A DNA stretch of 56,623 bases, from IMG/VR virus record IMGVR_UViG_3300009320_000019, positions 1-56,623 of that record; one strand, written 5' to 3'. This stretch comes from a virus (lineage: Duplodnaviria; Caudoviricetes). Each line of letters opens with the position of its first letter. Position 1 is the first letter of the stretch. This document shows, piece by piece, positions 1 through 54,872 of this stretch. The notes under the pieces are model-generated. The model was not told the origin of the DNA. It searched no databases and saw only the letters and a program-made list of their open reading frames with translations. The position numbers were made by a program, and so were the translations under genes.

Positions 1-105
1 GACAATTCCGTCTTCCATGCCCATTTGTTCAGCAATAGAAATTAACTCCCCATCACTTAAATCCTCTAACTTAGTATTCTCATCATATACCTCATCAGTT
101 TTCAT
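1..105 (-). CDS. 5' part of 77-aa hypothetical protein spanning the circular junction
   Basis: GGAGG SD, ATG at 105; 35 codons (MKTDEVYD...EDGIV) continue in frame at 56623. Confidence 0.75.
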   Translation of the reverse strand, partial: MKTDEVYDENTKLEDLSDGELISIAEQMGMEDGIV

Positions 106-183
106 TTCTAAACCTCCTTAATATGTTTCAAATTGTTTCCTTTACAATTAGGACAAATAGTTATCCATTTAGAATTCATCTTT

Positions 184-765
184 TTAGCCCCCCCTATTAC
201 CGAAGTATTTACCTTCATCATCTGTAATAACTTCACCTTTTTCACAAATATAGATACCATTAAACTGACATCCTTGTTCAAAGTATGTTAATCTGAAGTT
301 CAATTTAGGAAACTTCTTACTCATAGCCTTGATTACAGGAATACAGGGTCCCCAAGCGCATCTAAAAGTATACATAATTTCTCTCTGATAACTTTCAACT
401 AATTCGGCTTCATAAATCCCCCATTTAGTTCCCCAGTTATTGATACACCATTCATATCCACCAGCGTTATATCCATCTTTCATTTTCCAAGTAGGATTAG
501 GATTTGCTTCATCCCATTTTTTCTTTTCTGCTTTAGACATTTTGTCGTAGTTTGATTCTTTCAGTTTCTTTTGAAACCTTTTAGAAGCTCTTTCAACTTT
601 TTTGTCTAAATCTTTATACTTCTTAGGGTAAGGAATAAACTTATCAGCGTCTAAAACTGCTGTTTCCTCTCCTTTTTTATATCTAGACCTAGCAAAACTC
701 ATAAACCTTTTTAATTCAGTTCTAGAACCTTGTATTTCTAAATCACATTCACAATGATTTGGCAT
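184..765 (-). CDS. DUF1281/Api92-like (YubB ferredoxin-like) protein
   Basis: MPNHC N-terminus, WCINNWGTKW, F-x-CAWGP, KFPKLNF..YFEQG motifs. Confidence 0.75.
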   Translation of the reverse strand: MPNHCECDLEIQGSRTELKRFMSFARSRYKKGEETAVLDADKFIPYPKKYKDLDKKVERASKRFQKKLKESNYDKMSKAEKKKWDEANPNPTWKMKDGYNAGGYEWCINNWGTKWGIYEAELVESYQREIMYTFRCAWGPCIPVIKAMSKKFPKLNFRLTYFEQGCQFNGIYICEKGEVITDDEGKYFGNRGG

Positions 766-766
766 T

Positions 767-934
767 TTATTTACCTCCTATTTTCTTATCATTAAAACAT
801 TTAACAGAGAACATTTCATCTCCTTTTTCATCAAATATTTCAATTGTTTTTGTATAAAACACTCTCCCACTATCGAGAGTATGTTTTTCATTAGTCACTT
901 TAATCTTGTTTACATCGTGTATAGTTAATCTATT
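767..934 (-). CDS. hypothetical early protein (likely start MNRLTIH at 934)
   Basis: GGAGGT SD before 934; tight packing. Confidence 0.6.
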   Translation of the reverse strand, partial: NRLTIHDVNKIKVTNEKHTLDSGRVFYTKTIEIFDEKGDEMFSVKCFNDKKIGGK

Positions 935-1284
935 CATTCTAATACCTCCGGGAAATTCCAACTAACAATTTCCTTAATTATATATGCTTCATTACCAGTT
1001 ACTTTGGTTGAAGCACCATCATACCAATCTAAATACCAAAACTCTACATCTCCATTTTCGTAAATTCTGAATTCCTCACTTGGACCACCATAACTTAATT
1101 GGTATCTCCAATATGAAGCCTTTTGATCCCTAAAGGTATCAGCCTCTACAAAGTCCATACATAGCCCATATTCGTTCAAATAACCTAAATCCTCTACATA
1201 GTTATCCTTTGCTTCAAACAGGGTTTTAATGTCCTTTATTCTGCTTCTAAAAGCATTTTCCACTTTTTCACTACATTTACTCAT
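934..1284 (-). CDS. hypothetical viral protein with LSYGGPSEEF motif
   Basis: ORF, GGAGG SD before 1284. Confidence 0.65.
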   Translation of the reverse strand: MSKCSEKVENAFRSRIKDIKTLFEAKDNYVEDLGYLNEYGLCMDFVEADTFRDQKASYWRYQLSYGGPSEEFRIYENGDVEFWYLDWYDGASTKVTGNEAYIIKEIVSWNFPEVLE

Positions 1285-1285
1285 T

Positions 1286-1885
1286 TTAAACCTCCATACC
1301 ATTTAATAGGTATAATCCTGAATCACAGATATTTCTATATCTTATCCATAATCTAATTGATTCAATATCTGTCAATTGTATTGTAAATATCTTATTAATT
1401 TTTTCCTCATTATTATTAGAAATTATTTCATAATAATCTGGTTTATCTACTTCCTCAAATCCTTTCTCTTTTTGAAGTCGTTTTATTGACTTTTGAGTAT
1501 ATTTATCTAATTTTTCAAATCTGTTTTTGAAATCTGATATTTTAATATACCCTTCTTTTACTCCAAACTCTTTAAAGAAATTACTTATTGGTTCAGCTTC
1601 TTTAATAGTTCCTCTCCAACTTTTTAAGTAATTTTCTGGTGTTGTGCTTCTACCATTTGGTTGTAGTCCACCACCTTCACAATATCCAGCCCATTTACAT
1701 ACTCGTTGAATAATAGAATATTCCCACCCATAAGCATAAAACTGCCATTCTCTTGCTCTTTTATTGCTACAAGTGTCATATACATTATTACTTCCGATTA
1801 AATGCACTGCTAAGAGATTTGGTGTATATCCATCTTTTTCTTCAATTACATATACTTTTCTTTTGTATTCTATATCATAACTCAT
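1286..1885 (-). CDS. hypothetical protein
   Basis: 199-aa ORF, ATGA-coupled to upstream gene. Confidence 0.7.
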   Translation of the reverse strand: MSYDIEYKRKVYVIEEKDGYTPNLLAVHLIGSNNVYDTCSNKRAREWQFYAYGWEYSIIQRVCKWAGYCEGGGLQPNGRSTTPENYLKSWRGTIKEAEPISNFFKEFGVKEGYIKISDFKNRFEKLDKYTQKSIKRLQKEKGFEEVDKPDYYEIISNNNEEKINKIFTIQLTDIESIRLWIRYRNICDSGLYLLNGMEV

Positions 1886-2067
1886 TCTTTTTCACCTATT
1901 GTTTCAATATACTTTAAACTATACCATTCCTGGCTTGTTTGTTTGCATTCATTACAATACAAATCATAACTCCCATCATTATCACAAAACTCAAAACTTC
2001 CATACTCAACATCCTCACTTCCACAATAAGGACATTTACCTGCTTCGTGTCCAATTATTTCAACCAT
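1882..2067 (-). CDS. small Zn-ribbon protein
   Basis: CPYCGS...CNEC; GGAGG SD. Confidence 0.7.
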   Translation of the reverse strand: MVEIIGHEAGKCPYCGSEDVEYGSFEFCDNDGSYDLYCNECKQTSQEWYSLKYIETIGEKE

Positions 2068-2077
2068 TTTTTCCTCC

Positions 2078-2503
2078 CTAAATTATTCCCATTTGACTTA
2101 ATGGGCTATCTGGATGGTCTGGTTCAACTCTCCGACCATCTGGTAGTGTGATTACTGAATCCATACACATATGTTTAAGTTCTTTATTAGAAATTATTTC
2201 ATTTCCTTTTAAATCTCTTAATGTGTATCCTTCATCACTTACAAACTTAGTGTCGACTTCAACTTTTAAATCAGAGAAAAATCCCCACTTATCAAATTCT
2301 GCTTGTAATTCTTTTGCAGTTTCTTTATCTACATATTTTTCTACGAATTGAATTACTTCCTCGAATTCATCAAAGGTAGAACCCCAAATTCCATCACCAT
2401 CTCTGTAACTATACACTTCAAATTTAGGATCCATATACCTTAATTCAAAAGGTGTAAACCATTCATCGCAGGTTTTATCTTTTAATTCGCATTTAATTTT
2501 CAT
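2078..2503 (-). CDS. hypothetical protein
   Basis: 141-aa ORF with SD; C-terminal DGRRVEPD motif. Confidence 0.7.
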   Translation of the reverse strand: MKIKCELKDKTCDEWFTPFELRYMDPKFEVYSYRDGDGIWGSTFDEFEEVIQFVEKYVDKETAKELQAEFDKWGFFSDLKVEVDTKFVSDEGYTLRDLKGNEIISNKELKHMCMDSVITLPDGRRVEPDHPDSPLSQMGII

Positions 2504-2972
2504 CTTTTATCTCCATATCACATACAAATCCTTTTTGTGCTAGAAAGTTTTTAATGTCTCCTCCAATTGAATTAACTTCTTGATAACTAGCACCAAACCT
2601 TACAACTTCTTTTTCATAAAAACTTACTCGCTCTAAATTTCTTATTTCTATTGTATTCATTTTAATTCCTCCAATCTTTACAACATCTTTGACTAATATA
2701 GTAATAATTATACCTATCGCATAAACGATATTCTTTAAGCATCTCTTTAGTTTCTTTATATGTTGTGAACTCGTCTACTGTTTCAGTTTCCCCTTGAGGT
2801 GTTTTCATGTTTATAAATTTCATTTTATCAACCTCAATTTGAGAGCGTGGTTTAATCTCTCTAGTAATTTAACTGCTTTTAGAATTTCATACTCTTCTAA
2901 GTGGTTTCCGTCAATTAATTGTTCTAATACATAAAAATCTTCCTTATTCATTTTATACCTCTCATAATAAAT

Positions 2973-3122
2973 TCATTCTGCCACCAATTTATTTTCACTT
3001 AGATAATAACTCAAATCCTCTAAGTGACTTCTAACACAGTCTTTATCTTTCATTGCTACACCTTCAATAATCATAGAACACAAATGTTCTACTGCTATTA
3101 TGTTTTTATTTGTTTTAGTCAT
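2973..3122 (-). CDS. hypothetical protein (start MTKTNK)
   Basis: ORF with GGGGAG SD. Confidence 0.55.
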   Translation of the reverse strand: MTKTNKNIIAVEHLCSMIIEGVAMKDKDCVRSHLEDLSYYLSENKLVAE

Positions 3123-3123
3123 T

Positions 3124-3489
3124 TTAATACTCCCCTTTGAGCAAGAATGTATGCCCACCGGTTTCATTTCTGGCTATATAGAAACTAAATTCCTTAATAG
3201 GAAAATCTGTATAGCCATACTTTTTAGTATGTAATACATTTTCGTTTCCATCGGTTAACTCTACATTTGCTGATTTGTCGTCATTTACCTTTATCTTTAA
3301 CACAATAAAGTCCTCTTTCTTTAACTTATCTGTCATTGAGATTTCAATCGCATAATCACTGATTAACCAGTGGCAATTTGCTTTCTCAATCAAATACATA
3401 ATTCCTTCGGTTGCTATACAATTACTTAGACTTATTCTAGTAAATGTAGCACTTCCATAGAATTGTTTTAATTCTTGTTCTAAATCCAT
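3124..3489 (-). CDS. DUF6876-like protein
   Basis: LKQFYGS...TEGIMYL..ANCHWL...YTDFP...LLKGEY pattern. Confidence 0.7.
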   Translation of the reverse strand: MDLEQELKQFYGSATFTRISLSNCIATEGIMYLIEKANCHWLISDYAIEISMTDKLKKEDFIVLKIKVNDDKSANVELTDGNENVLHTKKYGYTDFPIKEFSFYIARNETGGHTFLLKGEY

Positions 3490-3766
3490 TTTAAACCTCC
3501 AAGTCTAATTTTAAACCTTCAATAAAGTTACTAAATTCTTTCTTAGAATTGAAAGTTTTTAGCTCTCCTTTACTATCTAACTTGTTGTCGTCACCAACAC
3601 ACAAGAAAAACTCGCCTATATTCTTTTGTTTACTCATTTTGTATACCTCACATTATCTGTTCTTTCGTCTAACTCTACACCAATCACTGTATGTTCGTTG
3701 TCTTTCACACTCACAATTCCGTTAACTAATCTAACAGAACAAGTTCCACACATTCCAATTAACACT

Positions 3767-3961
3767 TTATTTACCTCGCTCTTTAATACCAGCTTGAATT
3801 GCCAGTTGTTCTTTACTTTGCTTTATACACTTCGCCATTGCTTTTGCTCTTTCTACCTCTACATCATCGCTGGGTTCTATTTCAAGTTTAATTCCACTTG
3901 TAATAGTGTTATAACACGCAGAGAGTTTAGCCTCTACATATATTTCTTTTACTTTACTCAT
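3767..3961 (-). CDS. hypothetical protein
   Basis: ORF with GAGG SD. Confidence 0.55.
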   Translation of the reverse strand: MSKVKEIYVEAKLSACYNTITSGIKLEIEPSDDVEVERAKAMAKCIKQSKEQLAIQAGIKERGK

Positions 3962-4315
3962 CTTGTTCCTCATCTCTTAATGTTATTGAACAAGGATAAT
4001 TTCCATCCTCATAATAACAAGTTTCACAAAACTTTCCTTTACATCTCAAACTCATAGTGTTACCTCCATAGGTTTAACATTACCACTCGCAGTCACTTCA
4101 ACTTCATAAAAGGAGACATATTTATCTCCTAGTTCATATTTGCTATACAAATACTTAGAAACCATATTGTTCCACCTCGCCATAATACTCTAATATGTCT
4201 TTATCCCTTTGACTTAGGTTCAGACCGATAAACTTCGCATCTCTAATCTCGTCTAACTCAGCTTTGGTTATATTCCACATAGGATTTTCATCCTTCATTT
4301 GTCTCTTAAAAGAAA

Positions 4316-4508
4316 CCATTTTGCCACCTCTGTAGCCTTAATATCTTTCAACTCTACGCCAAATCCCATTTTAATCTTTAATGGGATTATTAAATTTACA
4401 TCTAGATCGTCTAAGATGTTTTCCTAAATTGTTCCCTATATAAGAACACTTTGGGCATTTATCCATTTTGCCACCTCCGTAGCCTTAATATCTTTCAACT
4501 CTACGCCA
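4316..4508. repeat. 46-bp direct repeat, 2 copies (4316-4361, 4463-4508), 1 mismatch
   Basis: CCATTTTGCCACCTCYGTAGCCTTAATATCTTTCAACTCTACGCCA read twice. Confidence 0.95.
4371..4466 (-). CDS. 31-aa putative Zn-finger microprotein (C2HC)
   Basis: MDKCPKCSYIGNNLGKHLRRSRCKFNNPIKD; GGAGGTG SD. Confidence 0.55.
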   Translation of the reverse strand: MDKCPKCSYIGNNLGKHLRRSRCKFNNPIKD

Positions 4509-4518
4509 CACTTCATCG

Positions 4519-4605
4519 TCATTTGTCTAGATGAAAACAATTTTGGCAATAAAAACCTTTACCAAAACTAGGATCCCCACATTCGGGGCATTTAAATTCA
4601 GTCAT
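4519..4605 (-). CDS. 28-aa CPxCG Zn-finger microprotein
   Basis: MTEFKCPECGDPSFGKGFYCQNCFHLDK; GGAGGTG SD. Confidence 0.6.
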   Translation of the reverse strand: MTEFKCPECGDPSFGKGFYCQNCFHLDK

Positions 4606-4795
4606 TTTGCACCTCCATGCAATTAGTCTGTGATAGAATCCGTCTATCTCGTCAGTACAATCGCTGTTTAAATTCAGCGAAAGATTCTGGGGCAGAGTCT
4701 ATGCCCTGAAGTTCAATATGCCTTTCGACATATATTGAATATTGATCCAGAATAAAATCGTTGGTATATTCCATTTTTACCTCCATATATTATAT

Positions 4796-4987
4796 TTACC
4801 ATATTTTCACCACTTTATCTTTAAAAGGGATATTAATAGAATTTTCTCCATACATTTTATCAATCCATCTGTGAAATCTATAATCTTTAAATCCACCTTT
4901 ACTCCAATAAAAGTCCTGAGAATTAAGATATTCATTTAATAAAGTTCCATCATCATTCTCAATTAACCAATTAACTATATCCATCAT
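4796..4987 (-). CDS. hypothetical protein
   Basis: 63-aa ORF, GGAGGTG SD. Confidence 0.6.
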   Translation of the reverse strand: MMDIVNWLIENDDGTLLNEYLNSQDFYWSKGGFKDYRFHRWIDKMYGENSINIPFKDKVVKIW

Positions 4988-5239
4988 TTTGGCACCTCCA
5001 ATTTGCCCTTAATCATTTTTTTGAGCCCCCTACTTTTCAGTGTGGGTTTTCGTATACTAGTTTCCATAGTTCCATTTTCTAATGATTTGGTCGGTTTCAT
5101 CATCATAATAGTATTTATGGGTTTTTGTATTTCCAATAAATTCCATCATTTTTTTTGACCTCCTTTTCCTTTGGGTATTTAAACCCATTAAGGAACATAA
5201 AAGGAAAGGTTGTAGATAATCATACAACCCCCAAAAAGA

Positions 5240-5770
5240 AAAAATAACCAGTCAGTAAGGGCGAACCTTATACTTCTGATTAGTTTGTATATGCCGATGT
5301 TCTGGCATAGGCGAGACAACTCGCTAAAGTTACTAATGGCTTTGGCTTTCACCCAATAGGGCTTATACCAGCCGTCTTTTAGTTATCCCCTCACAACTTC
5401 TTGAAGACTTTCATCCGAATGATTTGGTCGGTTTATCCCCCCGATTTTATATGTATTTTATTGCCTTCCTTCGATAAACTGAAGTTCGATAAACTGAAGT
5501 AATCACTATGGTTTAAAACCATCCCCTACCCACTCCGTATGCTGTGGGAGTTCCGGTCAAAAACACTGCGGGTAAACTTGATGACAATAACCATCAATAT
5601 CCGTCGGGGTTTTTTGAGCCCTCGTTGTTCGGTTTGTTTTCTTAACTTCTTAACCAATTTCGATGCTAAAAAGTTCATCTGGAATTCTTACCGATTTTCT
5701 GGATTTCATCCCTTGTCCGATGTTTTTCTGGTTTTCTCATAACTTACTCGCATAGTGTCGCAGAGGTTAA
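5240..5770 (-). ncRNA. Putative large structured non-coding RNA or leader
   Basis: GC-elevated, no credible ORF, serial hairpins, GAAA and UUCG loops on the minus strand, followed by a U-rich tract. Confidence 0.55.
5470..5499. repeat. Perfect 15-bp tandem duplication (TTCGATAAACTGAAG)x2
   Basis: Read directly. Confidence 0.95.
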
Positions 5771-6256
5771 TCATCGAAAACTCTTATTTATATTGTATCC
5801 TTTTTTTGAAAGTTTTTTTAATTGTGATTTTTTTAAACTTGGTGTAGATAATTTTTCTACTTGGTTTTTATAATATGTAGCATTTTTAGGTTCTTTTCTT
5901 TGTTGCCTTGTTGGTATTTCTTGCCTTTTTTGTGCTGTTTTTATACTATATTGTGTTTCTTGGGTTAATCTGTTGTCGTTATAAAAATATTCTAATCTTT
6001 GACAATTTTTTAATAATTTGGAATATTGTCGCCTGACATCTTTTTCTTTTTTAAAGGGGATTTTATATATACCTCTCTTGTTTAAAGTTCTGTATTTTTT
6101 AGGTTTTAAAAATATAGTTCCACTTTTTAAACTTATATTTTTACTTTTATTTAATGCTTTATTCATTTTTAAAAGTTTTATTTTTCTGGCATTCCATCGT
6201 ATAGGGTTTTCGCCTTTTAAAACTTTTTCATTCTTACTATTATTGTTTTTTTCCAT
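5771..6256 (-). CDS. Highly basic Lys/Arg-rich protein, probably leaderless
   Basis: 161-aa ORF starting about 22 nt downstream of a TATA box; roughly a quarter K+R. Confidence 0.55.
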   Translation of the reverse strand: MEKNNNSKNEKVLKGENPIRWNARKIKLLKMNKALNKSKNISLKSGTIFLKPKKYRTLNKRGIYKIPFKKEKDVRRQYSKLLKNCQRLEYFYNDNRLTQETQYSIKTAQKRQEIPTRQQRKEPKNATYYKNQVEKLSTPSLKKSQLKKLSKKGYNINKSFR

Positions 6257-6276
6257 ATAATTAGAAAGCAAACAAT

Positions 6277-6295
6277 CTTTATAAATGTTTCTATT
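6277..6295 (-). promoter_or_regulatory. Archaeal BRE-TATA promoter heading the early arm
   Basis: AATAGAAACATTTATAAAG on the minus strand. Confidence 0.7.
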
Positions 6296-6404
6296 CTCAC
6301 TATTTAGGTTTCTCGACGAGGATTTAACTAATAGTCATGTAGAAAAATTATTTGGTCAATTTTTTAAAATCGGGTTTTTGAAAAAAAAAATTTAAAAAAA
6401 ATTT

Positions 6405-7199
6405 TCAATTTCCTTTTTTTATAAAAGAAGTTGAATCAATAGAATTAGGTGTTATTTTGAATTCGTTGCTTGTTATGGCTTTGTGATATTTTCCCCACGC
6501 CATTTTGTCAATTTTAACAACTAGTTGAATCTCTTTACGAATATCAGAATTAATAGTTTTAGAAGTAAGATGATTAAGCACCTTACTTACTTCCAGGCTT
6601 TTAGAATCATAACTTATTCGATATTTTTTGAATTCCAGTTGATCTGCCCATTTAGAAATCCAAGTATCTCCATACCATACTCGTAAATCTGAAGGAATTA
6701 AAGGAACTTCATCAAGTACAGGCTTAGTCATTGCAAAAAAACAACCAATCATTGATTCACATTCTTCATGTTTAAATCCTAAATTTCTAAATTTTTGAGT
6801 AAGTTTTTTAACTCGTTTATAATCCGTACTTAGTATCATTTTTTGGTTTGTATAGATTTCTTTAATATAATCAATTAACTCTGGAGGAAATGTAATATCA
6901 TTATTTGCAATAATTAAAATATCTACATCTTCTTTCCTTGCTCGTTTTATAAATTCGTTCCAAACAGGATTAACATATTCATTTTCCTCAGATCTGGTTA
7001 TATCTATCTTTTTATGTGAAGAATGTATAGGTGGATTAGAACCATTATCATGAATCCATACTTCATCAATAGATTTAGCATTAATACAGCTCTTAAGAAA
7101 CTCTTTAGTAACTTTATGTTGGTTGTATACAGGACATGCTAGTACCAATTTTTTGGCGCGTTTGGTTTCTCCGAAACCATCAAATATCATATTTATCAC
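6405..7199 (-). CDS. GT2-family (GT-A) glycosyltransferase
   Basis: PVYNQ, HDNGS, NNDI acidic motif, GCFF, WYGD. Confidence 0.8.
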   Translation of the reverse strand: MINMIFDGFGETKRAKKLVLACPVYNQHKVTKEFLKSCINAKSIDEVWIHDNGSNPPIHSSHKKIDITRSEENEYVNPVWNEFIKRARKEDVDILIIANNDITFPPELIDYIKEIYTNQKMILSTDYKRVKKLTQKFRNLGFKHEECESMIGCFFAMTKPVLDEVPLIPSDLRVWYGDTWISKWADQLEFKKYRISYDSKSLEVSKVLNHLTSKTINSDIRKEIQLVVKIDKMAWGKYHKAITSNEFKITPNSIDSTSFIKKGN

Positions 7200-7902
7200 T
7201 CCATTCGTGTTTTAAGTTTGGTCTACTAAATATACAGTTTGGTATACTTACAAATCTTTCTAAAATCGCTTGATGTTTTAATCCTTCTGCGACAGAATAA
7301 GGAAAACTTTGGTTTCCTATAAATAATTTTGATCCTTTGATTACTTGTGCTAGTTCTAAGAAATTAGATACTGGATAAAAAGGAACATTTCCATTATCTT
7401 GTTTAAATCGTTCCCACTCTCCTTCTAATCCAACAAAAGAAATATTCCCAATGTATTTTATTAAAATATCCCCCCAAGGAAATTTATAATCATTATATCT
7501 AGGACTACGATGGATTACAACATCTGCAATATATTTTGGTTTAATATTACTTAACCACGCTTTGTTTTTTTCTTTTTCTTTTAATCCGAAAGTCCAAAGG
7601 TGTACATCTGCTAAATTATTTTTACCTACTTTTCTTTCATATTTTACCCTAAATTGATCTAAGTCATAATCTACGGGTAGTTTATTATCCCATACTTTAA
7701 CTTCTTTTATATAATCTTGTGCTTCAAGTAAGGGTTTTAACATTTTTATTGTTTCTAAATTTAATCTCGTTGGTATTCCAGGTATTCTTTTTTCTAATGG
7801 ATTCCCTGGATTTAAATAAAGAATCCCTCCACCTAATTTTCTAACAGTAGGTAAAGAATACATAATATCTCCCAAATCTCCCGAGTGTTTAAATGTTTTC
7901 AT
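7180..7902 (-). CDS. GT-B, GT9 (heptosyltransferase)-like glycosyltransferase
   Basis: HSGDLGDIMYSLP; LELAQVIKGSKLFIGNQS. Confidence 0.7.
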   Translation of the reverse strand: MKTFKHSGDLGDIMYSLPTVRKLGGGILYLNPGNPLEKRIPGIPTRLNLETIKMLKPLLEAQDYIKEVKVWDNKLPVDYDLDQFRVKYERKVGKNNLADVHLWTFGLKEKEKNKAWLSNIKPKYIADVVIHRSPRYNDYKFPWGDILIKYIGNISFVGLEGEWERFKQDNGNVPFYPVSNFLELAQVIKGSKLFIGNQSFPYSVAEGLKHQAILERFVSIPNCIFSRPNLKHEWSDKYDI

Positions 7903-8618
7903 TTTAATTTTTTTACTTTCATTAAATTAGGCCTATCAAAAATACAATTTGGTACTTTTGGATAAACTTCTAATATTGCTTTTTTCTTAAGTCCTTCTGC
8001 TATTGCATAAGGGGAACTTTGATTACCAACAAAAAGTTCAGCACCTTCTATTACTCTTGCTAATTCTAGAAAATCTTTTACTTTATAATACTTTACTTTT
8101 CCAACTTTTTTTTGAAACTTTTCCCACTCACTAGGCAACCCAACGAATACTGCATCTTTATGATATTTTTTCCAAATAGTTTTCCAATTAAAATCTTTAT
8201 TATGGTTTCTGGAACTCCTAGAAAAAATTACTTTTGCTACTTTCTTTGGTTTTACAGATAACCATTTTTTTGTTTCGTCATATTTTGGTAAATTAAAACA
8301 TCTCATGTGATTTTCTACTAAATTTCTAATACCTCTTATTACATTATATCTAATTGTAAAATCATAATCTACTTCTTCCCCATCCCAAATTTTAACTTCT
8401 TTAATGTAGTCTTGTGAATCAAGCAAAGGTTTTAATAATTTAATCTGAGGTTCTCTTAATTTAGATAACATACACATTTTCATAAAAAATCCACCATCAC
8501 ATCTTTCAATAAGCCCTTTATCTAAATACAGAATCCCACCACCAAGTTTTTTGATTGCAGGGAGCGAATAAATTACATCCCCCATATCCCCAGAGTGTTT
8601 AAAGGTTTTAATCGACAT
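7899..8618 (-). CDS. GT9-like glycosyltransferase, tandem paralog of 7180-7902
   Basis: HSGDMGDVIYSLP; LELARVIEGAELFVGNQS. Confidence 0.7.
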   Translation of the reverse strand: MSIKTFKHSGDMGDVIYSLPAIKKLGGGILYLDKGLIERCDGGFFMKMCMLSKLREPQIKLLKPLLDSQDYIKEVKIWDGEEVDYDFTIRYNVIRGIRNLVENHMRCFNLPKYDETKKWLSVKPKKVAKVIFSRSSRNHNKDFNWKTIWKKYHKDAVFVGLPSEWEKFQKKVGKVKYYKVKDFLELARVIEGAELFVGNQSSPYAIAEGLKKKAILEVYPKVPNCIFDRPNLMKVKKLK

Positions 8619-9249
8619 CGTAATCCCAATGATCTCCTGCTATTCTATGCTTACATTGAATATCAGTATCACAATAAACCTCTTTTGATTGATTACAAAA
8701 ATAAATATCTTCTCCAAGTGTTACTCTACCTTTTTCATTTCTAATTACTTTAAATTCTTTATTAAATAATTTTTTTGAAATTAATGTACATCCCATACCA
8801 ACTCTTTCTACTTTAACTAATCCAGTTTCAATTTTATCTACAGGCATAGATTTACCATCTTCCATCCAAGCATTTGGAATTGGAAAATCAGTATTAGAAT
8901 CTAATACCCAAACGATTGCAGAAACAATATCTTTTTTATGAACTAATAATTTTTGAATTATATCTGGAGGAACTAACACATCAGCATCAATAAATAAAAT
9001 ATAATCATAGTTTTTTTCAATAGCATATTTTAATGCTAAATTTCTTGCTTTAGTAATTCTATCGAATGCTCGTTCTAAATAAAAATTAGTATAATTAAAT
9101 TCAGTAGTAATATAAATTCCATTTTTAGAATTATCTAAAACTAAAATTTCTTTATTTTTATAAGAAATATTATTTAAAGATTCTGTAACTTCTTCCCAAC
9201 AATGCTCTTTCTTTTCATTAATAGGCACAGCGATTAAAACAGATTCCAT
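8608..9249 (-). CDS. GT2-family glycosyltransferase
   Basis: ARN, FIDADV DxD motif, GMGCTLI, GEDIYF. Confidence 0.85.
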   Translation of the reverse strand: MESVLIAVPINEKKEHCWEEVTESLNNISYKNKEILVLDNSKNGIYITTEFNYTNFYLERAFDRITKARNLALKYAIEKNYDYILFIDADVLVPPDIIQKLLVHKKDIVSAIVWVLDSNTDFPIPNAWMEDGKSMPVDKIETGLVKVERVGMGCTLISKKLFNKEFKVIRNEKGRVTLGEDIYFCNQSKEVYCDTDIQCKHRIAGDHWDYDVD

Positions 9250-9269
9250 GAGTATTTTATAGAGTGGTA

Positions 9270-9321
9270 ATATTTAAATGTTTCTATTGATAATCTATAT
9301 ATAATAGAAAGATTTATATAA
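9270..9321. promoter_or_regulatory. Divergent BRE-TATA promoter pair (GT operon leftward, packaging arm rightward)
   Basis: minus AATAGAAACATTTAAATA; plus AATAGAAAGATTTATATA. Confidence 0.7.
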
Positions 9322-9343
9322 CATCTTCATATTATAATATGTT

Positions 9344-9493
9344 ATGGTAATAAAAAATATATTAATTTACAAAGAAGAAATAGATTTTGGAATGGATATA
9401 GATTATTTATATGATCCCAATACAGATAAATATGAATTAGTTTATGTCGATTACATAAAAGGAGAAGATTTAATAGGGGTTGAGTTTAAATGA
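9344..9493 (+). CDS. 49-aa hypothetical protein
   Basis: Leaderless position after TATA; ATGA overlap with next gene. Confidence 0.5.
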   Translation: MVIKNILIYKEEIDFGMDIDYLYDPNTDKYELVYVDYIKGEDLIGVEFK

Positions 9494-30740: not shown

Positions 30741-30942
30741 AATATTCTCTAAGATAGAAAAAAAGTGGCCCAAGGGGTTAGAGATAGCATTAATACATCA
30801 TATTTTGATGTTAAAGTATGGATGGATACCTTTAGAGGAATTCTTAAAATTGCCCTCTGGGTTTGTATTTAATATGTTAAAATTGATAGAAGAGGACTCT
30901 AAGAAAGAGGAAAAAGAATATAAAAAAATTAAACGAAGATAA
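30724..30942 (+). CDS. Second tail chaperone-like protein
   Basis: YGWIPLEEFLKLP; directly before TMP. Confidence 0.6.
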   Translation: MRIKDKIFSKIEKKWPKGLEIALIHHILMLKYGWIPLEEFLKLPSGFVFNMLKLIEEDSKKEEKEYKKIKRR

Positions 30943-32249
30943 TGGATATTAAAAAACTTATTGTAATTATAGAAACTAAATTGAAGCAACGAGGTAAACT
31001 TAAACGGTTTGGTGTGGATGTTGATAAGGTGCGTGGTGCCTTGAAGGGAGCAGGATTAAATGCAAAAACATTTTTTACTGCCGCAGGTAAGCGTACACAA
31101 TTAGGAAAGGCAGCACAAGAGGCAGGATATAATTTAACTACTTTATCTCATAAACTGGGGGAGTTGGGTGCTAAATCTATTAAAGTAACCACTAGAGGGA
31201 TGGGCGAAATGGGCGATGTGGTTACTAAAGGTGGCCATAAGTTTAATATATTTAAAAATATAATAACTAATACAGGTGAGTCATTAGAACTTTATTCAAA
31301 AAAATTTGGGGGGGCAATGTCTAAGTTAGAGGCTTTAAGTGATGGGGATGATAGTCTTCAAGAAGTGCAAAAAAATACTAAAAGTTATGGGGAGGCTGCT
31401 ATAAAGGGTGGAAAAAAGACTAGATGGTTTAGGGGTGAAATGCTTGGTTTAATGTTTATGACTAGAGCATTATCTATGAGATTTGGTGGTTTAGTAAAAG
31501 CCCAGATGAAACTTTTCGGGGTTACAGGTATGTTATCTGCAATGTGGACCTCTGTTTTTGCACCATTAATGGCATATTTAGTTCCAATAATTGCAGATTT
31601 AATTTCATCGTTTATTGATTTACCGGGCCCTATTAAAGGAATAATTTCAGTTTTTATTGTTTTAGCGTGGGCATTTTTAAGTCTTCTTGTTATTATAACT
31701 ATGTTTAAAATAAGTGGATTAGCAGCGATAAAAGCTGCATTTCTGGAATCAATGTTACCTGCACTTGCTTGGTTGGGAGTAATTTTATTAGCAGTTGGGG
31801 CAGTATGGTTATTTTATAAAGCATTCAAGGCATTCCAAGATGGAGATATTATAAGGAGTATTATTTATGGATTAATGGGTATAGCCGCTGCATTTTTAGT
31901 AGTGGCCGCTGCCGTAGCTTTAGCAACTGGTGGTGCAAATATTATTGGTGGATTAACAGCGATAGGAATAGCTGGAGGGGCACTTTTGGTAGGGGCAGGA
32001 GTGCTAGGGGCAATGAAGATGGGGGGGAAAAAAGATGATTTTATTTGGCGAAGCGGTCAAGGTGCAGTAAGTATTAGTCCAGATGATGATATAATTGGAA
32101 CTAAAGAAGGACTTGGTGGAGCAGGTGGAACTATTAATTTAAATGTAGATCTCCATGGTGGTGCTTTTATGGATGAAAGTAGTATAGATTTATTAGCAGA
32201 AAAAATCAAAGGTCATTTAATTGGTGATCTAAGGAGGTTAGGATTATGA
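30942..32249 (+). CDS. Tape measure protein (short, TM-rich)
   Basis: Ala/Gly helical, hydrophobic segments, DFIWR...SPDD.IIGTK C-terminus. Confidence 0.75.
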   Translation: MDIKKLIVIIETKLKQRGKLKRFGVDVDKVRGALKGAGLNAKTFFTAAGKRTQLGKAAQEAGYNLTTLSHKLGELGAKSIKVTTRGMGEMGDVVTKGGHKFNIFKNIITNTGESLELYSKKFGGAMSKLEALSDGDDSLQEVQKNTKSYGEAAIKGGKKTRWFRGEMLGLMFMTRALSMRFGGLVKAQMKLFGVTGMLSAMWTSVFAPLMAYLVPIIADLISSFIDLPGPIKGIISVFIVLAWAFLSLLVIITMFKISGLAAIKAAFLESMLPALAWLGVILLAVGAVWLFYKAFKAFQDGDIIRSIIYGLMGIAAAFLVVAAAVALATGGANIIGGLTAIGIAGGALLVGAGVLGAMKMGGKKDDFIWRSGQGAVSISPDDDIIGTKEGLGGAGGTINLNVDLHGGAFMDESSIDLLAEKIKGHLIGDLRRLGL

Positions 32250-52702: not shown

Positions 52703-54649
52703 CTACAATAATTTAAATCTACCTCTTGTTGGTTCGAATATTTCTCCATTTCTTAAATGTCGTAAAAATTCTTCCAATTCAAATTCATTAATTTTTAAAT
52801 CTACTGCTTTATTTGTTATTTTTTCTATGGGCGCTCCCCTGCCTTCGTGTTCTTTATCTAAATCTTTTATTATCTCTTTGATTATGTGTATCTTTTCTCT
52901 TTTATTCTTTGGTAAAATATTCTCAAAACTAACTACATCCAAAGAGCCATCTTTAATTACTTGTTGGCTAATTAAAGCAGTTTTCATTAACTCTAAAGAT
53001 ATCTCTGCATCTTTTAAAGTTATTTCTTTTCTTAAATGTGCTTTTGCAGAAGCAGTTGCCAATCTAATTAAATTAATTAAAAGCCTACTTGAAAAGTATG
53101 CCCCTTCTGCCTCACTTCCCGGGCTAACTAATTTAAGGAATTCTTTTTTAAGATAGCTTTTAGATTCTTTAGTTAATATAGGGGCTATTTGTTTTACATA
53201 AGAAACATATTTTTTAACTGTTTCAGTATCATAAAAAGGTTTAGTTTGTTCTCCTTTTTCTATTTTACTAAAGATTGTATCTATTACATTTCCTTGTGTT
53301 TTTATATCTTTAATTGCTTCAACTGCAAAGATCAAATCAAATCTATCTAAAAAATCTTTAGGCAAATTTATTTGTTTGTAAATTGATTCAAATTTATCAA
53401 ATACTTTATCTTTCGGATTTGCCGCAGCTAATATTGTTGTTTTTGTTTTAAGAACTGTGTGAATAGTTGCCTTATCAAAAGGAACTTCTAATTTATCTAT
53501 TGCAATATTTAAATATGCTATATCTGATTTACTAATTTTATCTATTTCATCTATAATAGCCATACCACCATTACACATAGGGATTACTCCAGATTCTAAA
53601 CTCCAATCTCCTATTTCCTCGTCTTTCATTACAGTTGCTACTAATCCTGCGCCTGAAACTGTACTACTTCCTGTATATCTAGCTTTATCTATAAATTTAG
53701 TTAATCCTCTTATTAAAGCAGTTTTTGCTGTTCCTGGACTTCCCACTAAAAGGATATTAATCGTGCCTCTTTCTGATAACATATTTCCCTCATAAATATG
53801 TGTAGCTCCTATAAGTTGTAGAAATAATGCTTTCTTTATTGAAGGATAACCATAAATTGTGGGGGATATTGATTGCCCCATTTTATTAAGAACATCATCT
53901 TTAGATATTTCTTTTATTCTTTCTATATCTTTTTTAGATAATTTTATTTCTTTTTCTTTTAAAAATTCTACATTGTTTGCTTGGATAAAGGTAGTATACT
54001 CCTCGATTCGTGGACTTCTTTTTCTTTCTCCTACAAGGCCAGTTACTTTTACTTTAACGCTTGGTTGTAATTCTTTAGTTATTCCTGGGTTTGCTAAACA
54101 TTTAATCATTTCCACAAGTTTTCTTTCTGGCTTTTGTTCAAAATCTAAAATCATAGGATCTTCTTCTACCATTATTTTTTGTATATCGTATGCTTTGCTA
54201 TCTTTAAGATAAAATTTCTTATTCCCACAATGACATTGTTCTGGCTTATTTGGGGCAGGAATTTGTGGTAAGTTAATTTCATTTCCACAATTAATACATT
54301 CAAAAGTTTTATTAGAAATAATATGTTTAATTCCACCCACTTTTTTTACAAATCCTACAATAGAAACAAGTTCCCCAACATGTTTATTTCTTATCTTCCA
54401 AATTTCAGTATAAATAGATTCTGTAAGATTTTTAAATCTTATTTCTAAATTTACATCATAATGATCGTGAATTACATTTTGAAATAAAGATTTAATATTT
54501 AAGAAATCCTCTAATACCATTTGAGAAATCTCAAAAGAAAATTGAGATAATTTTTGCCAATCTATCTCTATGGAGCCCTTAGCCACCAATAAATTTTCTT
54601 TCTCGTGTGTTTCTAAATAGGTATGTATCTGTTCTATTATCTCTTCCAT
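52703..54649 (-). CDS. mcm: MCM replicative helicase
   Basis: Zn finger CxxC...CxC, GSPGTAKT, IDEIDK, AAANP, DRFDL, sensor-2 SSR; likely start MEEIIEQ. Confidence 0.95.
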   Translation of the reverse strand: MEEIIEQIHTYLETHEKENLLVAKGSIEIDWQKLSQFSFEISQMVLEDFLNIKSLFQNVIHDHYDVNLEIRFKNLTESIYTEIWKIRNKHVGELVSIVGFVKKVGGIKHIISNKTFECINCGNEINLPQIPAPNKPEQCHCGNKKFYLKDSKAYDIQKIMVEEDPMILDFEQKPERKLVEMIKCLANPGITKELQPSVKVKVTGLVGERKRSPRIEEYTTFIQANNVEFLKEKEIKLSKKDIERIKEISKDDVLNKMGQSISPTIYGYPSIKKALFLQLIGATHIYEGNMLSERGTINILLVGSPGTAKTALIRGLTKFIDKARYTGSSTVSGAGLVATVMKDEEIGDWSLESGVIPMCNGGMAIIDEIDKISKSDIAYLNIAIDKLEVPFDKATIHTVLKTKTTILAAANPKDKVFDKFESIYKQINLPKDFLDRFDLIFAVEAIKDIKTQGNVIDTIFSKIEKGEQTKPFYDTETVKKYVSYVKQIAPILTKESKSYLKKEFLKLVSPGSEAEGAYFSSRLLINLIRLATASAKAHLRKEITLKDAEISLELMKTALISQQVIKDGSLDVVSFENILPKNKREKIHIIKEIIKDLDKEHEGRGAPIEKITNKAVDLKINEFELEEFLRHLRNGEIFEPTRGRFKLL

Positions 54650-54674
54650 AATAATATTTTCCCCCTTTTTAAAA

Positions 54675-54872
54675 TTATTCTTCTTTCTTTTCAACTGGTT
54701 CTTTTGGTTTTTCAACCTTAGGTTTAGCATTTAAATCAATTATATCCACTTCATTAGATTCTTCAAATTTGATTGAAGATTCCCAAGATTCTCCTGGCTT
54801 CAAATGAATATGTGTTCCATCTACTTTAAACACTCTTACTTTTTTGTTTGTTTTGTTTGTTGCTTTCCACAT
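54675..54872 (-). CDS. hypothetical protein
   Basis: GGAGG SD, 65 aa. Confidence 0.65.
   Translation of the reverse strand: MWKATNKTNKKVRVFKVDGTHIHLKPGESWESSIKFEESNEVDIIDLNAKPKVEKPKEPVEKKEE

Follow-up and report, generated by a model that had tools for sequence, protein, structure and literature searches.

A G+C-rich, non-coding stretch with little folding signal between two groups of minus-strand genes in a probable virus of DPANN archaea

The locus and its neighbours

The DNA analysed here, which we call the window, is an entire linear virus record of the IMG/VR database, 56,623 bases long, with a G+C content of 30.8% and a rating of 45% complete. From 9.5 kb onward, its plus strand encodes the large terminase subunit (TerL), the portal protein, and a Cas4-like nuclease. 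A complete MCM helicase gene, with the OB, P-loop, lid, and archaeal winged-helix domains, is found at 52703-54730 on the minus strand. Among the 120 MCM relatives listed (31-54% identity), 15 are named: 10 belong to the Nanoarchaeota, Woesearchaeota, or Nanobdellota, two are labelled “archaeon”, one is assigned to the Altiarchaeota, and two come from bacterial-labelled bins. The nearest relatives of TerL in genome bins are found in the Methanosarcinales, Nanoarchaeia, Aenigmatarchaeota, and CPR. The best non-self match of the terminase among 5.8 billion proteins is 55% identical, and the nearest cultured phages are only 25% identical. Most likely, the window thus comes from a tailed virus that infects DPANN archaea of the Nanoarchaeota type. 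Because the winged-helix domain of the MCM protein, its named relatives, and the bins of the TerL relatives point in this direction, the signals described below are read as archaeal, and this host assignment changes how promoters and terminators are to be understood. In three related loci with a 51%-identical terminase (L047, L049, and L050), arrays of 5, 20, and 20 tRNA genes are located just after the terminase gene; such arrays are absent from the window.

The left part of the window is occupied by a block of minus-strand genes that runs from 9249 to the left end, with three glycosyltransferase-like genes first and small genes thereafter. Within this block, a 264-aa glycosyltransferase gene ends at 6405 and is followed by a U8/U10 run at 6401-6381 on the transcript. 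Next comes a lysine-rich ORF of 166 aa at 5771-6271 (161 aa if translation starts with the ATG at 6256); on the minus strand, a TTTATAAA box precedes its ATG by about 30 nt. It lies in 187 stop-free codons, a length reached by none of 2000 shuffles, its codon-usage log-odds is +0.31, and its segment (5771-6271) has a G+C content of 23.8%. We found no family, no relative, and no usable Atlas match for the encoded protein, and its predicted structure is poor (pLDDT 0.48). In other words, the ORF is probably real but orphan. Farther upstream, a 240-aa protein (7180-7902) and a 239-aa protein (7899-8618), both on the minus strand, have N-termini common to both. Over these 31 common residues, identity to part of an IMG/VR contig reaches 84%; the contig shows no further relationship, and we rejected it as a relative.

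Between the 166-aa ORF and the downstream genes lies an ORF-free stretch (5233-5770) that we treat as a putative untranslated transcript or spacer, assigned to the minus strand from the flanking genes and signals. Downstream of it, about ten tightly packed small genes follow on the minus strand with ribosome sites of the GGAGGUG type; the first of them (5057-5149, 30 aa, log-odds +0.31) has its ATG after AAGGAGG. Several of these small genes, at 4371-4626 on the minus strand (for example, 4371-4466), encode peptides that by eye resemble zinc ribbons of the CxxC type. In the same area, a 46-nt direct repeat (4316-4361 and 4463-4508, 98% alike) covers the ribosome site and start of small minus-strand genes, and the zone of these repeats folds well beyond shuffles.

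Base composition and coding content of the stretch

The initial annotation drew attention to a raised G+C content at 5240-5770, and this claim held up well. The value is 40.5% in comparison with 30.8% for the window, which is extreme for a spacer in this genome and corresponds to the 99.3rd percentile of all 531-nt windows, and eight other spacers or flanks have values of only 20-33%. On the minus strand, the stretch contains 184 A, 119 G, 132 T, and 96 C, so that the purine excess is weaker but kept. The step in G+C is sharp at both borders. Such a step, together with the presence of the stretch in no relative, would be expected if a foreign fragment had been joined into the contig during assembly. 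We regard this artefact as extremely improbable: it requires two chimeric joints, and three DNA runs from a single study, with the label marine metagenome, contain small contigs that match 5627-5779, 5770-5937, and 5819-5983 without a difference. One of these contigs crosses the upper border, but only by 9 nt, and this point is weak because the runs, in which small shares (0.07-0.17) are represented by a few short identical contigs, may include the source sample. No RNA run was listed among the sequencing runs that contain the sequence.

The stretch is non-coding by five measures, in agreement with the initial statement that it holds no credible ORF. First, each of the six frames of the gene-free stretch (5228-5770) contains 6-13 stops, all three stop codons are present in every minus-strand frame, and reassignment of any single stop codon opens none of the frames; the longest ORFs inside are 67 aa (plus strand), 54 aa, and 50 aa (both minus strand). 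Second, stop-free runs reach 79 codons at most, and 2000 shuffles give 76.6 ± 18.5. Third, the codon-usage log-odds per codon of four ORFs tested inside the stretch are -0.53 to -0.67, as opposed to -0.003 to +0.51 for ten flanking small genes. Fourth, the period-3 signal is 0.3-2.1, whereas the genome median is 3.0. Fifth, none of the six read-through frames matched a Pfam family. A tblastx search likewise detected no translated similarity of the stretch to other parts of the window or to the related loci, and the idea of a decayed paralogue was rejected on this ground.

A rival view is that a gene might have been missed, either as small ORFs or as a gene that uses another code or contains frameshifts. 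Many G+C-rich spacers in the GC-IGR survey are unannotated ORFs, uORFs, or sORFs (PMC6429828), and minus-strand ORFs of 50 aa and 29 aa do exist here. However, the log-odds of these two ORFs are -0.53 and -0.67, in comparison with about 0 to +0.5 in real small genes, and the minus-strand ORFs lack the GGAGGUG-type ribosome site found before the neighbouring genes. With three stop codons in every minus-strand frame and no Pfam, tblastx, or period-3 signal, missed coding is very unlikely.

The same survey gives a useful standard of comparison. The 47 long G+C-rich spacers of strain HIMB5 include 13 coding regions, 4 known RNAs, 11 uORFs, at least 3 sORFs, 5 protein-binding regions, and 4 riboswitch candidates (PMC6429828). 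In this one AT-rich genome, most such spacers are not structured RNAs, which tempers the prior for an RNA here. The stretch resembles the GC-IGR candidates (Stav et al. 2019, PMC6429828) in being a spacer of about 540 nt with a G+C content far above that of the other spacers of its genome. It differs from them in that candidates of the survey are named only after homologues give a consensus structure, whereas the stretch has neither a homologue nor a folding signal; it would thus fall into the survey class “unnamed: insufficient evidence”.

Folding, RNA families, and DNA-level signals

The initial annotation described a large structured RNA with serial stems, including GNRA and UNCG tetraloops. 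The sequences of these stems are present, but the series is no more than chance would give. When the 566-nt fold was compared with dinucleotide shuffles, the minus strand had a z-score of -0.67 (21 of 100 shuffles were as good) and the plus strand a z-score of -1.71 (5 of 100). There are three tetraloop hairpins of the GNRA/UNCG type with stems of at least 3 bp on the minus strand and none on the plus strand of the stretch; 1000 shuffles give 1.60 ± 1.28, and 22% of them reach three. The body of the stretch (5401-5765) has no folding signal on either strand (z +0.45 minus, -0.87 plus), and 150-nt windows across 5400-5770 score from -1.5 to +0.8. A large structured RNA is therefore unsupported, whether one takes the stretch in full or only the two thirds at its 5' end, and in our preferred reading the body at 5400-5770 is not a folded RNA domain.

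Only the 3' part behaves differently. The fold of 5233-5400 has z-scores of -2.29 on the minus strand and -2.14 on the plus strand, and hairpins somewhat beyond chance are restricted to 5286-5400, where we see, on the minus strand, 5393-5324 (multi-branch, with GGU-GAAA-GCC inside), 5323-5310, and 5309-5289. Among 150-nt sliding windows, scores below -2 are found in 5100-5400 alone, and there on both strands; for comparison, the nearby coding zone 4250-4800 has z-scores as low as -3 to -4. Because the fold signal stays within 5100-5400 and is of the same size on the two strands, it suggests terminator palindromes rather than the fold of an RNA from one strand. It had also been proposed that G-U pairs favour the minus strand. 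This argument fails, since the minus strand simply contains more G and U, and shuffled versions of it fold almost as stably; judged against its own shuffles, the plus strand folds no worse, and the helix at 5325-5342 has G-U pairs on the plus strand only.

No known RNA family was recognized at first sight, and the covariance search bears this out: none of the 4227 models of Rfam release 15 reached its gathering score anywhere in the window. At E-values up to 10, nine sub-threshold matches were obtained in 4900-6100 (E 0.69-9.6), which we regard as noise; the best scores there are 13.8-20.1 bits, in comparison with thresholds of 39-100. GOLLD, ROOL, and the group I and group II introns, which we take to be among the Rfam models, are similar to the stretch in their size range (0.4-0.8 kb), in being virus-borne, and in having some GNRA hairpins. 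The stretch is unlike them in that it has no Rfam match at E up to 10, interrupts no gene, and folds no better than shuffles.

Several specific RNA types were also considered. ARAGORN found no tRNA or tmRNA gene in the window, even at the relaxed threshold ps80, and the Rfam tRNA model gave no row at E up to 10 in 4900-6100. In the related loci, 45 tRNA matches occur in 3 of 11, and they do not align with the stretch; a decayed tRNA array was therefore rejected. For archaeal C/D-box RNAs, we looked for a C box (RUGAUGA) that is followed within 35-75 nt by a D box (CUGA). RUGAUGA is absent from both strands, and the one UGAUGA, at 5579 on the plus strand, has no CUGA in range. No CRISPR array (at least three regular direct repeats of 24-40 nt) was seen in 4900-6100. 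A sponge for a GGA-binding protein was dismissed, as about 10 GGA motifs counted by eye compare with about 8.5 expected by our own estimate, and an integration site was dismissed because the 30 proteins scanned include no integrase and there is no tRNA-like piece. Guide or antisense segments were suggested by two matches: 5396-5416 is the reverse complement of 31346-31366 at 20 of 21 nt, and the adjacent 5418-5434 is identical to 5081-5097 at 17 of 17 nt. We rejected this idea, since 75 of 100 equal-sized windows of the genome have such hits (blastn-short, E up to 0.05).

One inverted match elsewhere in the window, between 47-74 and 31321-31348 (28 nt, 96% identity, E 1e-7), is well above this background of short matches. 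The inverted partners of 47-74 and of 5396-5416 (21 nt, 95%) lie side by side in a 435-aa gene (30942-32249).

Homologues of the stretch were sought in several collections. A blastn search against 50,697 phage records found none, and none was seen in five virus records searched whole. In 143 related loci (30 around relatives of the 240-aa protein, and 50 viral and 63 genome loci around TerL relatives), nhmmer and blastn gave only chance hits of 13-33 nt. Across 401 genomes of the phylum to which the Nanoarchaeia bin belongs, three short hits to different parts of the query were obtained, which we read as chance. Exact words of 20-22 nt occurred in three metagenome stretches, with similarity not extending beyond 20-23 nt, and in none of the sequences of two viral scans and one genome scan; because exact-word scans miss diverged relatives, these empty scans do not show absence. 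A covariance model of 5240-5400 matched nothing but the window itself (81 loci; 82 sources, 1.03 Mb). Scans of IMG/VR for close relatives with the 166-aa, TerL, 264-aa, 63-aa, and 240-aa proteins yielded no close kin (the best IMG/VR match of the 240-aa protein is 46% identical), and a TerL scan of metagenome contigs produced 153 pattern hits, none of them a relative.

Taken together, these results bear on the possibility that the stretch encodes a functional non-coding RNA of a new family, either an RNA of about 0.53 kb from the minus strand or a smaller RNA, perhaps several. Searches for structured RNAs in AT-rich genomes rely on precisely such long, G+C-rich spacers (PMC6429828), and the stretch stands at the 99.3rd percentile for G+C content. 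Moreover, it is bounded on the minus strand by a TATA-like box and a U-tract, its last 168 nt at the 3' end have a z-score of about -2.3, a plus-strand hairpin followed by U6 reaches -2.5, and the stretch has been kept in a compact genome. On the other side stand the z-scores of the whole stretch (-0.67 and -1.71) and of its body (+0.45 and -0.87), the chance-level number of tetraloop hairpins, the lack of an Rfam family, a tRNA, or a C/D-box pair, the covariance model that found only itself, and the lack of a homologue in any collection searched. We consider a functional RNA distinctly less probable than our preferred reading, which is set out below, and a large folded RNA, as one part of this possibility, is quite doubtful. 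It should be mentioned that z-scores from minimum free energies can miss real RNA structure. The structured-RNA reading is weakened, short of being refuted.

Some variants of this possibility can be named. The RNA could have little structure, it could work with the 166-aa lysine-rich protein, or it could be a plus-strand RNA that ends at 5566-5615. The most specific version, an RNA of about 0.5 kb from an undescribed family of DPANN viruses, with its own TATA box, an oligo-U end, and a fold unseen by energy models, is likewise a doubtful one; such an RNA might work in concert with the lysine-rich orphan protein encoded next to it. We know of no virus-encoded non-coding RNA described for DPANN archaea, and a discrete RNA from this stretch would be the first for their viruses. 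The stretch also provides a clean test case in which G+C content and hairpins seen by eye are insufficient for calling a structured RNA.

A third possibility is that the stretch acts as DNA, either as an origin of replication or as a group of sites bound by proteins, adjoining the AT-rich segment 5771-6404. At 5470-5499, an exact 15-nt tandem duplication (TTCGATAAACTGAAG twice) is present, with an inverted partial copy (GATAAACCGA) at 5428-5437. Exact GATAAACYGA sites number three in the whole window, and all of them fall within these 70 nt (5428-5497), two in the tandem and one inverted. In addition, GGGGAT occurs three times on one strand (5526, 5440, and 5390), the flank at 5771-6271 has a G+C content of 23.8%, and the hairpin signal is the same on both strands. 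However, GATAAACYGA with one mismatch allowed is found 7 times genome-wide in comparison with 8.5 expected, GGGGAT occurs 45 times in the window, and the open frame in the AT-rich flank far exceeds the length expected by chance. Archaeal origins carry two or more long repeated boxes, in inverted pairs around an AT-rich unwinding zone, next to an initiator gene; at the stretch, only the 15-nt tandem and the 10-nt inverted partial copy were seen. The replication genes (MCM and an ATPase) are about 47 kb away in the window, and no initiator gene of the Orc1/Cdc6 type is seen among the 30 proteins scanned from this 45% complete record. A DNA control region is unlikely, though better placed than missed coding, and none of these features gives positive proof of an origin.

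Putative boundary signals and the preferred reading

Transcription units of bacteria end at terminators composed of a hairpin and a U-tract, and those of archaea at oligo-U terminators; an archaeal TATA box is located about 26 nt before the start of transcription. At the 3' end of the stretch, a U6CU5 tract (5244-5233) is present on the minus transcript, as had been noted from the letters. Directly before it lies a hairpin at 5282-5245 (-10.2 kcal/mol, z -1.9; 7 of 200 shuffles fold as stably), and after it a second terminator-like hairpin (GGGGGUUGUA...UACAACCUUU) at 5232-5205, followed by CCUUUU (-10.1 kcal/mol, z -2.4). A terminator scan picked up one of the two hairpins that flank U6CU5. 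On the minus strand, a hairpin and a U-tract close the stretch; at least five U follow a stem-loop at the putative end of the unit, and termination is predicted there from the sequence. Among the 23 U-runs of at least five in the 9.5-kb minus block, U6CU5 and the U8/U10 run at 6401-6381 are the two strongest. The latter directly follows the glycosyltransferase gene, which suggests that strong U-runs mark the ends of units.

The stretch had also been described as heading the early operon. It does lie upstream of the run of small genes, but a hairpin and a U-tract intervene, and it is therefore not simply their leader. Beyond these signals, a further minus-strand hairpin at 5204-5150 pairs the CCUUUU region with the AAAGGAAAAGG ribosome-binding zone of the 30-aa gene (fold of 5140-5234: -26.9 kcal/mol, z -2.6) and contains a TTTAAATA box at 5183-5176. 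By masking the AAAGGAAAAGG zone, this hairpin may serve as a translational or transcriptional control point.

At the other end of the stretch, a TATA-like box, TATAAATA, is found at 5792-5785 on the minus strand, inside the last codons of the 166-aa ORF. It would be a candidate archaeal TATA box with a putative start near 5762. Boxes of this type number two on the minus strand in 1-9489, where about two would be expected by chance according to our own estimate, and a promoter scan gave 9 sites, in comparison with 9.4 in shuffles, and hence no excess.

From these observations, the reading that we prefer, with somewhat less than even confidence, is that the stretch is an untranslated and mostly unstructured spacer or transcript, the working parts of which are stop signals. 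It would probably be transcribed on the minus strand, a view supported by the genes from 1 to 9249, all of which are on this strand, and by the purine excess that the stretch keeps there in weaker form. The transcript could belong to the 166-aa gene as its 3' untranslated region, or form a separate unit that would start about 23 nt after TATAAATA. It would stop at the hairpin and U6CU5 (5282-5233), with the second hairpin at 5232-5205 as a possible back-up. In its simplest form, this reading has the stretch transcribed along with the 166-aa gene or directly after it, with a stop at 5244-5233, and its working parts would then be boundary signals; these stop signals, together with the promoter-like boxes on both sides, would separate the upstream unit from the small-gene operon. 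Two runs of U5 inside the stretch, at 5672-5668 and 5563-5559, could stop an archaeal polymerase early, which would speak against this preferred reading.

The stretch resembles ordinary boundaries of transcription units in its two hairpins and U6CU5 at the 3' end, and a strong U-run also ends the glycosyltransferase unit. It is unlike them in length, as about 80 nt suffices for such a boundary and the stretch has 540 nt, so that a G+C-rich body is left over. A G+C content as extreme as 40.5% means that the stop signals alone are insufficient as an explanation. Viruses usually shed useless DNA, and the retention of 0.5 kb thus hints at a function. Our guess for the G+C-rich body (5400-5770) is that a relic, or foreign DNA kept by the virus, is the likelier origin. 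As for a donor, the Pfam and tblastx searches revealed no protein-like remnant, the 401 genomes of the Nanoarchaeota phylum offered no DNA match beyond the three chance-level hits, and none was found in the five genomes that hold the loci L096-L099 and L124, which were searched whole. If the preferred reading is true, the locus is an ordinary transcription-unit boundary that carries a G+C-rich filler, still to be explained, and little can be learned from it.

On the plus strand, a hairpin followed by U6 is present at 5566-5615 (-16.8 kcal/mol, z -2.5) and is a possible candidate for the end of a plus-strand RNA.

A separate observation concerns the structural-gene region of the window, where the plus strand carries five copies of a motif, (T)TATAAATACGA(A/T)AA (15426, 20762, 26899, 28370, and 42461). 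Three of the five copies are located in gaps between long ORFs, and the motif looks like a candidate virus-specific late promoter or TATA box.
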